Shown here: positions 750 through 36,865 of the stretch, one piece after another
Layout: every line of letters begins with the position of its first letter
Position numbering within the stretch: position 1 is the first letter of the stretch
Assembly (NCBI GenBank): GCA_001819815.1
Contig: MHNO01000009.1
Coordinates: 460 to 64,459 of the forward strand
Origin: Candidatus Ryanbacteria bacterium RIFCSPHIGHO2_02_FULL_45_17b
GTDB lineage: Bacteria > Patescibacteriota > Minisyncoccia > Ryanbacterales > 2-02-FULL-48-12
Direction of reading: 5' to 3'
DNA length: 64,000 nucleotides
Notes under the pieces: generated by a model
Databases searched by the model: none
Told to the model about the DNA's origin: nothing
The model's input: the letters and a program-made list of their open reading frames with translations, nothing else
Position numbers and translations under genes: made by a program

Positions 750-977
750 GTTGTACCTCCTAATTGTGAATTTGATAGCATCATACAGAACTAGCATAGT
801 CTTGTCAAGTACATAACTTTACCAAGCGGTTTGAAGCGAGCGGCAGCGGGAAATCACCATGGCTTTCTATCAGAATGCGCTGGAACTTGGTATCCCATTC
901 ATCGTCGTTGATACGCAACGTTTTTCTCCAAACCAATGCGCCGACATAATAATTGCGGCACTTGGAAACTAAGCAAA

Positions 978-22314: not shown

Positions 22315-22596
22315 ATGGCACATACAAAATCTGCGGGTTCTACCGCGAATGTTCGCGACTCACAAGCAAAATATCGGGGTGTAAAAATACATGATGGAGA
22401 CCGCGCTGTCGCAGGCAATATTATTGTCCGCCAAGTTGGTTTACGCATTCTCCCGGGAACAGGCGTTCGCCAAGGACGCGATTTTACGCTCTATGCCATT
22501 CGAACTGGTCTTGTAAAATTCTCTGCAAAACGAAAGAAACGATTTGATGGAACTACTACACGAAAGAAAGTGGTAAGCGTCGTTGCTAATTCTTGA
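22315..22596 (+). CDS. rpmA: 50S ribosomal protein L27
   Basis: MAHTKSAGSTANVRDSQAKYRGVK...AGNIIVRQVG matches L27 MAHKKGGGSTRNGRDS...AGNIIVRQRG. Confidence 0.9.
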   Translation: MAHTKSAGSTANVRDSQAKYRGVKIHDGDRAVAGNIIVRQVGLRILPGTGVRQGRDFTLYAIRTGLVKFSAKRKKRFDGTTTRKKVVSVVANS

Positions 22597-29336: not shown

Positions 29337-30725
29337 ATGGCAGGCACTTCAGCGTCTAAAACCTCTTTTTCCATGCAATCCGCGCCTATTGCCGGCGTTC
29401 GTATGCCACCCCAAAACGTGGAAGCCGAAATGTCAGTTTTGGGTTCTTTAATGCTTGATAAAGAGGCTTATAACAAAATTGCGGATGTATTGCGTCCGGA
29501 AGCATTTTATCGCGATCAGCATCGCGTTATTTTTGAGGCCATGCAAAATCTGTTTGAAAAACGGATACCCATAGACGTGCTTTCCACATCAAACCGCCTC
29601 CGTGAAAAAAAGCACCTGGACACCGCGGGCGGCATGAGTTATCTTACGTCGCTTGTTACCATGGTGCCGACCGCAAGCAATATCGTGCATTATGCCGAAA
29701 TTGTGCAGAGAAAATCTACCCTGCGAAACATCATTTCCATATCACAAGAAATAAACCAGCTGGGATACCAGGAATCAGATGAAGTAGAGACATTGTTGGA
29801 TGAAGCTGAAAAAAAGATTTTTAGTATTTCTCACGGATCGTTGCGCCAACGGTTTGCCCCCGTTTCGGAAGGACTCGAGGCCGCATGGGATCGCATTGAT
29901 AACATGCAAGACGGAAACGCATTGCGCGGAGTTCCTACCGGATTTACCCAGCTCGACAATTTGCTTTCAGGTTTTCAAAAATCTGACCTTATTCTTTTGG
30001 CAGCCCGCCCGTCATTTGGAAAAACAAGTTTGGCGCTTGATATCGCCCGGCACGCCGCGGTTACCAAAAATATTCCCGTAGGCATCTTTAGCCTTGAAAT
30101 GTCTACGGAACAACTTATAGACCGCCTGCTTGCCGCAGAAGCAAACGTGGATTCGTGGCGGCTCCGCACCGGCCGCTTAAAACATGATTCAGATGATTTT
30201 ACGCGCATTCGCGATGCTCTTGGACGCCTTTCAAAAGCCCCGCTCTTTATTGATGACGAACCTTCCAATAATATACTCCAAATGCGCGCCATGGCGCGGC
30301 GCCTGCAGGCAGAACATGGTCTTGGGCTTATCATTGTGGACTACATACAACTTATCACCTACCATAAAGCAGGTTCTGAAAGTTTAGTGCGCGAAGTCAC
30401 GGAAATTTCTCGCGCCTTAAAAGGACTCGCGCGTGAACTTGCCGTTCCTGTTATTGCCCTTTCCCAGCTTTCACGCGCGGTTGAACAACGCCATCCATCT
30501 ATTCCAAAACTTTCTGACCTGCGGGAAAGCGGAAGCTTGGAACAAGACGCGGATGTTGTTATGTTTATTTATCGCGAAGATAGATACAAAGATTCCGATG
30601 ACAATAAAAACATTGTGGAACTTCAAATCGCAAAACATCGCAACGGACCTTTAGGAAAAGTAAGTCTTTATTTCAATCAGGAAATAACTTCGTTCAGAAG
30701 TTTAGAAACCCATGGCACATCCTAA
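29337..30725 (+). CDS. dnaB: replicative DNA helicase DnaB
   Basis: N-terminal PPQNVEAEMSVLGSLM, Walker A ARPSFGKTSLALDIA, Walker B LIIVDYIQLI. No intein. Confidence 0.9.
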   Translation: MAGTSASKTSFSMQSAPIAGVRMPPQNVEAEMSVLGSLMLDKEAYNKIADVLRPEAFYRDQHRVIFEAMQNLFEKRIPIDVLSTSNRLREKKHLDTAGGMSYLTSLVTMVPTASNIVHYAEIVQRKSTLRNIISISQEINQLGYQESDEVETLLDEAEKKIFSISHGSLRQRFAPVSEGLEAAWDRIDNMQDGNALRGVPTGFTQLDNLLSGFQKSDLILLAARPSFGKTSLALDIARHAAVTKNIPVGIFSLEMSTEQLIDRLLAAEANVDSWRLRTGRLKHDSDDFTRIRDALGRLSKAPLFIDDEPSNNILQMRAMARRLQAEHGLGLIIVDYIQLITYHKAGSESLVREVTEISRALKGLARELAVPVIALSQLSRAVEQRHPSIPKLSDLRESGSLEQDADVVMFIYREDRYKDSDDNKNIVELQIAKHRNGPLGKVSLYFNQEITSFRSLETHGTS

Positions 30726-31320
30726 ACATATTCAGCGAACAACAGAACTTCTCGGACAACTCCCCGGTATAGGTCCGCGCCAAGCACTGCGGTTAAGCTA
30801 CGTTCTTGCGGAAAAAAATATCATATGGCGAAAAGAATTAGCTCAATTACTAGAATCCTTTGACGCGCAACTTTCGCGCTGTGAACTTTGTTTTCGCGTT
30901 ATGGAGCAACGCGGGTCTTCTTATTGCGATATATGCAGTTCACCTTCGCGCGCAAAAGATAGCATTCTTGTTGTTGAAAAAGAGTCAGACGTAGAACAAT
31001 TTGAAACCTATCAACAATTTCAGGGAACATATCATGTAACCGGTGGTACTATCTCCCCGCTTGAAAAAAATCCCGGCGAAAAACTGCGCTTACGAGCATT
31101 GTTTGAACGCGTAAAAACTTACCCCGCGCGCAGTACCATGGAAGTTATTATAGCCACTTCAAACACACTTGAGGGCAATCAAACAGCAGCCTACATTGAA
31201 CGCATTCTCCAACCTCTCCAAATAAAAATAACCCGCCTCGGACGCGGGTTGTCTACGGGAGCAGAGATTGAATATGCCGATCCGCTTACGTTGGAACAGG
31301 CACTTAAAAATAGAAAATAA
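30712..31320 (+). CDS. recR: recombination protein RecR
   Basis: HhH LPGIGPRQALRL, a C4 zinc finger (CELCFRV...CDICS) and a Toprim domain. Confidence 0.9.
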   Translation: MAHPKHIQRTTELLGQLPGIGPRQALRLSYVLAEKNIIWRKELAQLLESFDAQLSRCELCFRVMEQRGSSYCDICSSPSRAKDSILVVEKESDVEQFETYQQFQGTYHVTGGTISPLEKNPGEKLRLRALFERVKTYPARSTMEVIIATSNTLEGNQTAAYIERILQPLQIKITRLGRGLSTGAEIEYADPLTLEQALKNRK

Positions 31321-31331
31321 AATTGCGTGTT

Positions 31332-31367
31332 AGGCGACTCGACCGCCAATTGGCGGTCGAGTCGCCT
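31332..31367. terminator. bidirectional hairpin terminator between recR and rplU
   Basis: aggcgactcgaccgcc-aatt-ggcggtcgagtcgcct is a perfect 16-bp stem. The minus strand has a following T-rich run (caattttattttctattttt). Confidence 0.55.
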
Positions 31368-31381
31368 ATTTCCTCACAGAC

Positions 31382-31693
31382 TCAAATTTTCGTTATCTCA
31401 ACCTCCGTAAAATGCTGGCGATGACCTTGCTTGCGGCGACGGCGGGTTTTTGAATGATACCGCAAATTAGTTATTTTTTTCGCGCGGGCGTGCCGAAGCA
31501 CTTTCGCAGATACGCTGGCGCCCTCCACTAACGGAGTACCGATTTTTGCCTCTCCCTCCTCTCCTGCCACCAACAAAACTTCATCAAACGAAAAGTCCTT
31601 CCCTTCTTCAATAGGCAGTTTTTCTATTTTGAGTTTTTTTCCGGGTTCCACAACATATTGTTTCCCGCCTGTTTTGATGACTGCAAAAGACAT
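31382..31693 (-). CDS. rplU: 50S ribosomal protein L21
   Basis: MSFAVIKTGGKQYVVEPGKKL is the L21 N-terminus. The track ORF extends 9 codons further upstream. Confidence 0.9.
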   Translation of the reverse strand: MSFAVIKTGGKQYVVEPGKKLKIEKLPIEEGKDFSFDEVLLVAGEEGEAKIGTPLVEGASVSAKVLRHARAKKITNLRYHSKTRRRRKQGHRQHFTEVEITKI

Positions 31694-31730
31694 GAAAAAA
31701 TAGTACCAAATTAAGAACATATTGTATATC

Positions 31731-31759
31731 TTGACAAATAGTAAAAAAACTACTATGAT
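31731..31759 (+). promoter_or_regulatory. near-consensus sigma70-type promoter for the small-gene cassette
   Basis: TTGACA (31731-36), 17-nt spacer, TATGAT (31754-59). SD AAGGAGG 6 nt before the ATG at 31787. Confidence 0.5.
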
Positions 31760-31786
31760 AGTTTTAAAAGAAAAAAGGAGGCAGGT

Positions 31787-32029
31787 ATGGCACTAAAGCT
31801 CATTAACACGGAAGAGATCTGGCTCCGTATTGCGAGCACGCACGAACATGTTGTTCTCCCGCCAGGGGTATGGGTTGTGCAACGCATACCTAATCCAATA
31901 GAAGGACAGACCGCTCGTTGGGTTAAACTAAGAACGAGTGAGATGGGGATCATCGGATCTGCAGAGGAAGCCCTTTTGGGGAATTACCCTGATGTGGTTG
32001 AACTTATTGAAGAGGAGGAATCACGATGA
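31787..32029 (+). CDS. small hypothetical protein (80 aa, acidic C-terminus)
   Basis: Strong SD and a consensus promoter. Its stop overlaps the next start (ATGA). Confidence 0.5.
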   Translation: MALKLINTEEIWLRIASTHEHVVLPPGVWVVQRIPNPIEGQTARWVKLRTSEMGIIGSAEEALLGNYPDVVELIEEEESR

Positions 32030-32334
32030 GTCATAGTATAACGGTTGATGTGAAAGAACCAAAAGCCATAATTGTCTTCAAAACCACATTTAATTTGTAC
32101 GAAGGCAGTACTAGTTTGGAAACGCTTTTCGTGCTTTCTTGCCGCATTTCCCAAGAGACAATATTCAAGGCACATCTGGCACCACGAGGATACAAAACAC
32201 TTGATCTCACCTCGCCGGAGGAGATTATTTCAAAAGAAGTGCTCTTGCGGGAAGTTGAGACAGTGGCTAGAATCATCAGAGAAGTCTATAACAAACCTAA
32301 AGCAAATATGCAAATCCAACAAGACCTTTTTTAA
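32026..32334 (+). CDS. small hypothetical protein (102 aa)
   Basis: SD GAGGAGG 8 nt upstream. Translationally coupled to the preceding ORF. Confidence 0.5.
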   Translation: MSHSITVDVKEPKAIIVFKTTFNLYEGSTSLETLFVLSCRISQETIFKAHLAPRGYKTLDLTSPEEIISKEVLLREVETVARIIREVYNKPKANMQIQQDLF

Positions 32335-32364
32335 AAGGCCCAACATTTCGAAAGGAGTAAAAAG

Positions 32365-32538
32365 ATGAACATAGTATTCATTCTGACAGGTGTGGTTATT
32401 GGATTCATTTTGCTGTATCGCTGGATACAGCCGCTCCGTTGTAATGGTTGTCAGATGTTCCTAGTGCGACCCATGACGAAACGACACGTAACGTGCAATG
32501 CGTGCGGAATGACTAACAGTGTCCCATTCCTTATTTAG
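32365..32538 (+). CDS. 57-aa membrane-anchored zinc-ribbon protein (not in the ORF track)
   Basis: SD AAGGAG 9 nt before the ATG at 32365. TM helix IVFILTGVVIGFILLY, then CNGC...CNAC (C-x2-C-x15-C-x2-C). Confidence 0.45.
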   Translation: MNIVFILTGVVIGFILLYRWIQPLRCNGCQMFLVRPMTKRHVTCNACGMTNSVPFLI

Positions 32539-32554
32539 GGCAGTTGGAAACACT

Positions 32555-33607
32555 TCAAGAATCCTCCTCCCCTACCGGCTTCTCCAAAAGTATCGCTTCT
32601 ATAGCCCCCTCTCCGCCGGCTATACGGACAATGTCCTTATCAATTTTCTTGAGCTCCTTATAGCCGACATTATACGTTCCTACCAGGGTACCCAATTGGG
32701 TGCCCATTTTTATTACATAACTGTCGTAGTTTACAAGATGCTTTTTTAACGCTTCCACGTTTTTGCGAATATCTTTCGCGGATTCTTCAATTTGAAGCGC
32801 GCGCAACCCCTGAAGCACGGTCTGTAAATATGCGAGAAACGATGTGGGAGAAACTATAATGACATGTTTTTCTTTAAACGCGTATTCAATCAAGTCTTGG
32901 GTAGAAACCTGCACCGCGCCCACTTTGTTTATCAATAAGTCATAATAAATTGCTTCCGACGGAATAAACATAAACGCAAAGTCCATGGTATTCTCCGCCG
33001 GTTTTATGTATTTGGATGTCTCGTCAATGCGCGTTTTTAAGTCTTGTTTGAATACTTTTTCGAATCGCTCGCGTTCTGTCGGATCATTCGTGGCAAGAAT
33101 GCGCTCGTAATTTTCGAGTGAAAATTTGGAGTCCACGGGAACAATTTTATCTTTAATGAATACCACCGCGTCCACCAAAGAACCGTCTTCAAACCCATAT
33201 TGCATTTGATAACTTCCGGGCGGGAGAACATTTTTTAGCACCGTTTCCAAATAGTATTCTCCCAAGACGCCGCGCTGTTTGGGGTTGCGCAAAATATCCT
33301 GCAAGCCTTTTAGCTGATCGGCAAACCCCATCACCTGCCGGTTTGTCTCATCGAGCTTCGTGAGGCGTTCGGTAACATCCTGAATAATTTTACTGCTGTG
33401 CTGAAATTGCACCTGCATAGATTTATGCGACTCCCCCATGTTGCGATCAAGCGTACGCGCGATTTCCTGCACTTGGTTTTGGAGAAGAATGAGCGATTGA
33501 TTATCTTCCGGTTTTTTTTTCATGCGGGAAATAAGCCATATAAGGACGGCAAATCCTAGCATAAGTACTACGATGGTAAAGATATTGTAGAAATACATAG
33601 GTTTCAA
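32555..33607 (-). CDS. rmuC: DNA recombination protein RmuC
   Basis: N-terminal TM helix, coiled coil, and the conserved C-terminal FAFMFIPSEAIYYDLL...VIIVSPTSFLAYLQTV region. Confidence 0.7.
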   Translation of the reverse strand: MKPMYFYNIFTIVVLMLGFAVLIWLISRMKKKPEDNQSLILLQNQVQEIARTLDRNMGESHKSMQVQFQHSSKIIQDVTERLTKLDETNRQVMGFADQLKGLQDILRNPKQRGVLGEYYLETVLKNVLPPGSYQMQYGFEDGSLVDAVVFIKDKIVPVDSKFSLENYERILATNDPTERERFEKVFKQDLKTRIDETSKYIKPAENTMDFAFMFIPSEAIYYDLLINKVGAVQVSTQDLIEYAFKEKHVIIVSPTSFLAYLQTVLQGLRALQIEESAKDIRKNVEALKKHLVNYDSYVIKMGTQLGTLVGTYNVGYKELKKIDKDIVRIAGGEGAIEAILLEKPVGEEDS

Positions 33608-36446: not shown

Positions 36447-36522
36447 TGGCGGCCCCACGGGGAATTGAACCCCGGTTTGATGGATGAGAACCATCTGTCC
36501 TAGGCCACTAGACGATGGGGCC
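36447..36522 (-). tRNA. tRNA-Glu (anticodon CUC)
   Basis: 76-nt cloverleaf: acceptor GGCCCCA/TGGGGCC, D-arm GTCTAGTGGCCTAGGAC, anticodon stem GATGG/CCATC with loop TTCTCAT, T-arm CGGGGTTCAATTCCCCG, encoded CCA. Confidence 0.85.
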
Positions 36523-36565: not shown

Positions 36566-36596
36566 AAGAAAAATCCCCTAAGCTGACGGGGATTTA
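36566..36596 (-). terminator. rho-independent terminator at the end of the dcw operon
   Basis: On the minus strand: AAATCCCC-gtcagctta-GGGGATTT followed by TTCTTGAATTATT. The hairpin contains the stop codon of the zinc-ribbon ORF. Confidence 0.5.
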
Positions 36597-36865
36597 TCGT
36601 TATGCTTTGTTTTCTTTCGCTCATTATCTTTACATACGCCGCATTCCCATCCGTTCACATCAGCTCGAAATGATAACAAAGTTCCGCATCTTGGGCATTT
36701 CATACCAATACAACTCACTTCGTTGCACCAACTTCCACCACGCTCACCGGATCGACAAAACCGATCATAGAAGCATCTTTTCACAGACGCTTCTTTTTCA
36801 TGTCCTTTCACAAAAAATCCCCCTTTGATAAACAGTATACCACGCTCTTTATCTAGTTTGTCCAA
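36578..36865 (-). CDS. small Cys-rich (zinc-ribbon) hypothetical protein
   Basis: Four Cys pairs (CFYDRFC, CNEVSC, CPRC, CGVC). Overlaps the murF stop by 12 nt. Confidence 0.4.
   Translation of the reverse strand: MDKLDKERGILFIKGGFFVKGHEKEASVKRCFYDRFCRSGERGGSWCNEVSCIGMKCPRCGTLLSFRADVNGWECGVCKDNERKKTKHNDKSPSA

Follow-up and report, generated by a model that had tools for sequence, protein, structure and literature searches.

Organization of the locus

The window is a stretch of 64,000 nucleotides (nt) from Candidatus Ryanbacteria bacterium RIFCSPHIGHO2_02_FULL_45_17b (contig MHNO01000009.1). Between rplU, which codes for ribosomal protein L21, and rmuC it contains a cassette of three small open reading frames (ORFs) preceded by a promoter. 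We will show that this cassette, rather than being a mobile module, is probably an accessory operon of small proteins with a narrow taxonomic range. Its features are the following:

31722–31739, invariant block TTGTATATCTTGACAAAT of 18 nt, which holds the cassette -35 box TTGACA (+)
31731–31759 (+), cassette promoter TTGACA-17-TATGAT, sigma-70-type, 11 of 12 consensus positions
31731–31736 (+), -35 box TTGACA, followed by a 17-nt spacer
31754–31759 (+), -10 box TATGAT
31787–32029 (+), ORF1, 80 amino acids (aa), with the Shine-Dalgarno sequence (SD) AGGAGG at 31776–31781, 6 nt upstream of the start
32026–32029 (+), stop-start overlap ATGA of ORF1 and ORF2
32026–32334 (+), ORF2, 102 aa, with GAGGAGG upstream, the constant core gene
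32365–32538 (+), ORF3, 57 aa, with AAAGGAG upstream and an ATG start

The promoter, the three ORFs, their SDs and the overlap had all been recognized in the initial annotation and are confirmed here. ORF1 and ORF2 correspond to A3J55_00310 and A3J55_00315, hypothetical proteins of a metagenome-assembled genome of Candidatus Ryanbacteria, which belongs to the Parcubacteria in the Candidate Phyla Radiation (CPR). This genome was obtained in a study of the Rifle aquifer (PMC5079060). In the literature we have found nothing on the cassette locus. The window has no paralogues of the three ORFs elsewhere, and the GC content of the cassette is 0.40–0.49, compared with 0.44 for the whole window. ORF1 and ORF2 are predicted to be co-transcribed from the single upstream promoter and translationally coupled through ATGA; the stop/start overlap is seen in the window and also in L086, one of the related loci described below.

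The cassette promoter

The promoter is situated 28 nt before the SD-ATG, inside a 93-nt spacer. Taken alone, a match to 11 of the 12 consensus positions is not rare and would be unremarkable: three matches as good or better are found on both strands of the 64 kb, when about 1.9 are expected from the base composition. What makes the promoter convincing is its place, together with its conservation. The chance of such a match within the 93-nt spacer and on the correct strand is about 0.001. The block TTGTATATCTTGACAAAT, which occurs once in the window, is the same in L001, L002, L003, L084 and L088 and has only 1–3 changes in L085 and L086. Throughout six lineages TTGACA is invariant, while the -10 box appears as TATGAT, TATCAT or TATTAT.

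We also considered a conserved operator in the promoter spacer. The palindrome ATAGTA-N7-TACTAT is perfect in the window, but it is not kept in L001 and L002, so this idea was abandoned. Rfam gave no cis-regulatory RNA or L21 leader above threshold. A second TTGACA-17-TATGAT with the same hexamers is found at 780–808 (-), ahead of an ORF at 797–306 (-).

Distribution among related lineages

A word-index search of 5.8 billion proteins gave three relatives of ORF1 with 64–69% identity; one more came from a metagenome locus. The same search with ORF2 and ORF3 returned the query itself only. For ORF2 an exhaustive HMMER search of 1.84 billion cluster representatives found only four true relatives, of about 100 aa and 36–49% identity. 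A match of ORF2 with E = 6e-5 to P0009, a protein of 961 aa with about nine near-identical tandem repeats of about 95 aa, was treated as spurious, because it fell in seven short stretches of the repeat.

The cassette is found in at least about eight closely related lineages, whose RmuC is 83–94% identical to that of the window. Its position is the same in the window and L088, L001/L084, L002, L003, L085, L087 and L089/L090; in L086 it lies beside rmuC. The arrangements are as follows:

L088: 100% identical to the window
L001/L084 (another named Ryanbacteria, A3J54): rplU(-), ORF1, ORF2, rmuC(-); collinearity with the window extends over the entire 13.8-kb contig
L002 and L003: rplU(-), ORF1, ORF2, then the end of the contig
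L089/L090: ORF1, ORF2; the 3' end of ORF2 overlaps the rmuC stop by 4 nt
L085: rplU(-), ORF2, rmuC(-), without ORF1
L086: ORF1 reduced to 34 aa by in-frame deletion, ORF2, rmuC(-); the left flank is different
L087: ORF1 frameshifted in an A7 run, ORF2, an unrelated 101-aa ORF, rmuC(-)

It is apparent that ORF2 is the constant core of the cassette. ORF1 is frequent but dispensable: three lineages lack it or have it truncated or frameshifted. Of the shortened ORF1 of L086 only the N-terminus and the C-terminal motif are left, together with its stop/start overlap with ORF2. A peculiarity of L086 is found at its positions 1–230, where coverage is 1.6: homology on the rplU side ends at the rplU start codon and is followed by an unrelated gene. 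Either a rearrangement broke the sequence at the cassette promoter, or the assembly is chimeric.

Selection and vertical descent

Substitution rates were calculated by the Nei-Gojobori method for the window against L001, as the synonymous divergence dS and the ratio dN/dS of non-synonymous to synonymous divergence:

ORF1: dS 0.93, dN/dS 0.21
ORF2: dS 1.09, dN/dS 0.41
Flanking genes dnaB, recR, rplU and rmuC: dS 0.66–0.97, dN/dS 0.02–0.09

In both ORF1 and ORF2 the proportion of non-synonymous differences (pN) is well under that of synonymous differences (pS). They are real genes, under purifying but relaxed selection. Their non-synonymous evolution is 4–10 times faster than that of the flanks, and ORF2 is only 27–63% identical among lineages whose RmuC C-termini are 83–92% identical to that of the window. 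Since the synonymous divergence of both genes equals that of the flanks, the sequences indicate that the cassette has been inherited vertically over a dS of about 1–2. The initial annotation had seen in its architecture a type common among toxin-antitoxin, anti-phage or phage-derived modules. We find instead a single copy in one chromosomal position, with the same dS as its flanks and with ORF2 present without ORF1 in L085.

Origin of the cassette

The genes that flank the cassette in the window are:

30712–31320 (+), recR, 3' neighbour of rplU, convergent with it
31382–31693 (-), rplU (L21), divergent left neighbour of the cassette
32555–33607 (-), rmuC, convergent right neighbour of the cassette
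22315–22584, rpmA (L27)

A gene for a P-type ATPase is also among the neighbours. In every lineage with a known right flank, rmuC is convergent on the cassette.

In the outgroups L005, L013, L016 and L039 (the last a Staskawiczbacteria), four more distant Parcubacteria, rplU immediately follows rmuC on the same strand. The gap between the two genes is 8 nt in L005, 137 nt in L016, 37 nt in L039 and about 20 nt in L013 (the last from coordinates); L013 and L016 resemble the window in having recR behind rplU and convergent with it. In the window the distance between rmuC and rplU is 861 nt, and the cassette lies in between on the opposite strand. Because rmuC and rplU are adjacent in the outgroups, we read the cassette as an insertion: the most parsimonious origin would be an old insertion between the once adjacent rmuC and rplU, which took place in the ancestor of the subclade. 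A comparison of this junction in relatives had been proposed from the start, and its outcome is divided: the cassette is indeed syntenic in the close relatives, but a sign of insertion is present when the outgroups are considered. The nearest species representative by L21 (L004, 83% identical) has no cassette and carries argS and a 198-aa hypothetical gene upstream of rplU; the rmuC-rplU junction is therefore prone to rearrangement. We have looked for the signature of a mobile element at the insertion and rejected it: direct and inverted flanking repeats are absent, as are an integrase and a tRNA, and the GC content is normal.

The initial annotation had placed the cassette in a spot where rpmA would normally follow rplU. 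This does not hold. The cassette lies 5' of rplU, which on its 3' side has the convergent recR as neighbour. Besides, rplU and rpmA are unlinked in all ten cassette-free CPR-like loci that we compared (L004, L005, L007, L008, L013, L016, L018, L024, L028 and L039): rpmA was not present in their fetched rplU flanks, which cover about 0.3–6 kb depending on the contig, while it was present in the fetched flanks of 67 other loci. In eight of the same ten loci recR is convergent on rplU.

The ORF2 protein

ORF2 is basic (isoelectric point, pI, 8.9–9.9) in four of the six lineages examined. Its conserved residues are grouped in three motifs, TF-LY, L--R-I--ET and I--E-Y; T21/F22, L24, Y25, L37, R40, I41, E44, T45, I83, E86 and Y88 are invariant in the alignment. 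Our own reading of the alignment pattern suggests the order beta-beta-alpha-beta-beta-alpha(-beta).

Prp (YsxB) is a small protease encoded beside rplU in Firmicutes; it has a similar size and the element order beta-beta-alpha-beta-beta-alpha. ORF2 resembles it in its length of about 100 aa and in its adjacency to rplU, but it lies on the opposite strand and on the opposite side of rplU. The identity of ORF2 with Prp (DUF464) was rejected. An hhalign comparison with 10 Prp sequences from Firmicutes loci gave a probability of 0.15%, and in the ORF2 family neither a His nor a Cys is invariant, so that the catalytic dyad is lacking. Neither is there a substrate for such a protease: L27 of the window begins MAHTKSAGSTANVRDS, with no N-terminal extension to cleave.

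The ORF1 protein

ORF1 is acidic, with a pI of 4.8 in the window and 4.4–4.8 across lineages. Its C-terminal motif G-x-AEEALLGNYP is invariant, while loops at residues ~17–25 and ~47–54 are variable. In the two loops pN/pS is 0.5–1.1, versus 0.14–0.33 in the scaffold. From four sequences AlphaFold2 built an all-beta model with seven strands. When this model was compared by Foldseek with PDB and BFVD, no match was found below E = 0.03. The weak top matches, with a TM-score of 0.42–0.56, are SH3b-type domains of endolysins and NlpC/P60 enzymes, together with small uncharacterised phage proteins.

The loci L089 and L090, each from a different sample, share 98.7% identity over 914 nt, with 12 differences. 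Ten of these are packed into 45 nt of ORF1 (codons 48–62; L090 166–210) and give six amino acid changes. ORF2 is identical in both loci and rmuC has one synonymous change. Across all lineages it is in this stretch of 45 nt that ORF1 varies most. Because pS is also raised locally in this patch, a short recombination tract or a relaxed loop accounts for it as well as diversifying selection does.

Diversification of the loop by a diversity-generating retroelement was considered and rejected: there is no second copy of the 3' half of ORF1 in the 64 kb (no search for a reverse transcriptase was made), and the rise of pS as well as pN in the patch argues against it.

ORF3 and the third slot

The N-terminal 17–20 residues of ORF3 are strongly hydrophobic (mean Kyte-Doolittle value of 2.6 over 17 residues) and form a transmembrane (TM) helix. 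They are followed by RCNGC...TCNAC, that is CxxC-N14-CxxC, with C26-x2-C29 and C44-x2-C47 in the spacing of zinc-ribbon knuckles. The pI of the protein is 9.7. Among the 174 ORFs of 40–80 aa starting with M in the window, only two contain CxxC-N8-25-CxxC. Both the helix and the cysteine pairs agree with the initial description, as does the remark that ORF3 had escaped annotation: no 57-aa protein is called in the public protein collection. The positive residues that follow the helix suggest that the zinc ribbon would face the cytoplasm.

ORF3 may be compared with membrane-anchored zinc-ribbon proteins with rubredoxin-like knuckles, with which it shares one TM helix and the paired cysteines. 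It differs from them in that its zinc-finger matches (C1_1, zf-Sec23_Sec24, TIGR04272) are all below the curated cut-offs, the best Pfam score being 19.6 bits versus 25–26.5 and that of TIGR04272 16 versus 36; nor does it have a homologue outside the species of the window.

The DNA of ORF3 is found only in L088, where it is 100% identical to the window; it is absent from L001, L085, L086, L089 and L090. In L087 the third slot is occupied by the unrelated ORF of 101 aa (656–961), which lies on the strand opposite to rmuC and shares 29 nt with its 3' end; we examined it as a possible paralogue of ORF2 or ORF3 and found no similarity. The slot after ORF2 is thus variable, it gains and loses genes, and ORF3 is confined to the species of the window. 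From its predicted features ORF3 looks like a recent membrane-anchored add-on.

Another small zinc-ribbon ORF of the window also looks unannotated. It is found at 36581–36703 (-), has 41 aa (MKCPRCGTLLSFRADVNGWECGVCKDNERKKTKHNDKSPSA) and adjoins a tRNA gene at 36450–36522 (-).

The rplU side of the cassette

The rplU gene has no Shine-Dalgarno sequence. Instead there is a -10-like hexamer, TACTAT (-), equivalent to ATAGTA (+) at 31700–31705. In five lineages (the window, L001, L002, L003 and L085) this hexamer ends exactly 6 nt before the ATG; it is TACTAT in the window, TAGAGT in L001 and TATAGT in the other lineages. This arrangement suggests that the rplU mRNA may be leaderless. A -35-like hexamer TATACA (-), which is TGTATA at 31723–31728, is found 17 nt upstream of the -10-like hexamer and within the invariant block. 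The block may therefore hold both -35 elements, which suggests divergent promoters with back-to-back -35 boxes. On the other side of rplU, between its 3' end and the convergent recR, there is a perfect palindrome of 19+19 nt at 31331–31368 (TAGGCGACTCGACCGCCAA/TTGGCGGTCGAGTCGCCTA), probably a bidirectional terminator.

Comparison with known families

The three proteins had been described as unrecognizable, and we reach the same result: there is no significant match in Pfam, PHROGs, NCBIfam, PADLOC or PDB profiles. In the sequence profile search of PDB nothing was found below E = 0.1. The profile and structure searches that had been recommended, carried out with profiles of ORF1–3 and with Foldseek for ORF1, thus gave no significant match. 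In contrast, the suggestion of a toxin-antitoxin (TA), anti-phage or phage-derived module found no backing. A tblastn search of the 50,697 phage genomes of INPHARED, scans of IMG/VR and a blastn search of plasmids gave no match. PADLOC had no match for ORF1–3 or for their relatives, and the neighbours of the cassette are recR, rplU, rmuC and the P-type ATPase gene.

Interpretation

We propose the following course of events. About 0.6–0.9 kb of DNA with its own strong promoter would have been inserted, in opposite orientation, into the rmuC→rplU junction of the ancestor of one Ryanbacteria subclade, and it would have been passed down vertically ever since. ORF2 would be the core product, probably an effector. 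ORF1, an acidic all-beta protein of 75–80 aa, would usually be made just before ORF2 through translational coupling. It is probably a stoichiometric co-translated partner, which may bind or modulate ORF2 through G-x-AEEALLGNYP and its acidic tail. In the species of the window the third slot would supply ORF3, the predicted membrane-anchored zinc ribbon. We infer that the role of the cassette is accessory and not housekeeping.

Several points weigh against this proposal. The interaction of ORF1 with ORF2 is only what we infer, and the presence of ORF2 alone in L085 means that ORF1 is not obligatory. For ORF1 the structural model is moderate, with a predicted local distance difference test (pLDDT) of 75 in the best of five and 41–63 in the other four, and for ORF2 a single sequence gave no usable model (pLDDT 45). 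The relatives of ORF1 are those of a word index, and the survey of Ryanbacteria species gives a lower bound. Several relatives are found on short contigs of low coverage; with a coverage of 1.6 in L086 and a frameshift in an A7 run in L087, some of the loss states of ORF1 may be assembly errors.

The cassette could also be a type II TA-like pair fixed in the chromosome, with ORF1 as antitoxin and ORF2 as toxin, or the reverse. Like mazEF, relBE and higBA, it has two small genes that overlap and are predicted to be transcribed together from a strong promoter; an acidic product upstream, a basic one downstream and the fast evolution of both are further points in common. The short ORF1 of L086 keeps its C-terminal motif, as antitoxins keep their neutralising tail. 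Yet there is no likeness to the TA families of Pfam, NCBIfam, PADLOC or PDB, and the cassette is not mobile or multi-copy: one copy in a fixed locus has descended vertically, its distribution is not patchy, and only 4–5 clusters are found in billions of proteins. It has no conserved operator palindrome, as the one in the promoter spacer is not kept in L001 and L002, and in L085, L086 and L087, on short contigs of low coverage, its partners do not occur together intact. Since ORF2 stands alone in L085, which contradicts the version with ORF2 as toxin, the pair could survive as a TA system only if ORF1 were the toxin, in which case loss of ORF1 with ORF2 kept would be tolerable. We consider such a pair unlikely. 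We give an equally small chance to a more general proposal, in which ORF1 and ORF2 would form an undescribed two-protein module of Ryanbacteria for recognition or conflict (for example toxin-immunity, anti-phage or host-interaction), with new folds and with the loops of ORF1 giving specificity; it would be in keeping with two near-identical strains that differ almost only in the ORF1 loop. It is very improbable that the cassette is a defence module against phages, or what is left of a prophage or mobile element. The small genes are restricted to a lineage and evolve fast, the third slot is variable, and the weak fold neighbours of ORF1 (E ≥ 0.03) are small phage proteins and SH3b-like endolysin domains; against this, PADLOC, PHROGs, the phage genomes, IMG/VR and plasmids are all negative, the neighbours are housekeeping genes, and integrase, tRNA and flanking repeats are missing from a region of normal composition.

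A different possibility is that the cassette is a lineage-specific housekeeping adjunct of a neighbour, either a factor associated with the ribosome or L21, or a partner or antisense regulator of rmuC. Its linkage to rmuC holds in every lineage and that to rplU in most of them, it shares the invariant promoter block with rplU, ORF2 overlaps rmuC by 4 nt in L089 and L090, and it has been kept through a dS of about 1–2 in streamlined genomes. However, with a dN/dS 4–10 times that of its flanks, and an ORF2 so much more divergent than RmuC, its constraint is unusually loose for such a role; other Parcubacteria have the rmuC-rplU pair without any cassette, and the comparison with Prp failed. We find this adjunct role improbable. 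Least probable of all is a lack of function in some or all of the ORFs, chiefly in ORF3, which could be a chance or very young ORF: it has no homologue, none of the sister lineages carries it, and selection is not measurable because an identical strain is the only other source of its DNA. Against this stand its strong SD, its ATG, its clean TM helix and its four correctly spaced cysteines, a motif of two in 174 ORFs.

An accessory operon, as we prefer to see the cassette, has parallels in its own group of bacteria. Orphan clusters are found in CPR/Patescibacteria: they consist of small hypothetical proteins restricted to a narrow clade, with no homologues, with relaxed selection and with variation in presence and absence. 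The cassette differs from them in that its point of insertion is resolved, its near-consensus promoter is conserved and its vertical descent is documented.

Conclusions

Nothing sets the cassette apart from the many other orphan small-protein genes of CPR genomes, nor ties it to defence or to TA systems. If taken further, it would be a clean and datable example of gene gain in streamlined CPR genomes. A strong promoter would have come with the inserted DNA or been created by it, and the stretch that separates the cassette from rplU probably now carries the rplU promoter as well. The new genes can be traced across about eight lineages through gain, truncation and loss of a partner. Their proteins belong to the "dark matter" of the CPR, and any function assigned to them would be new.

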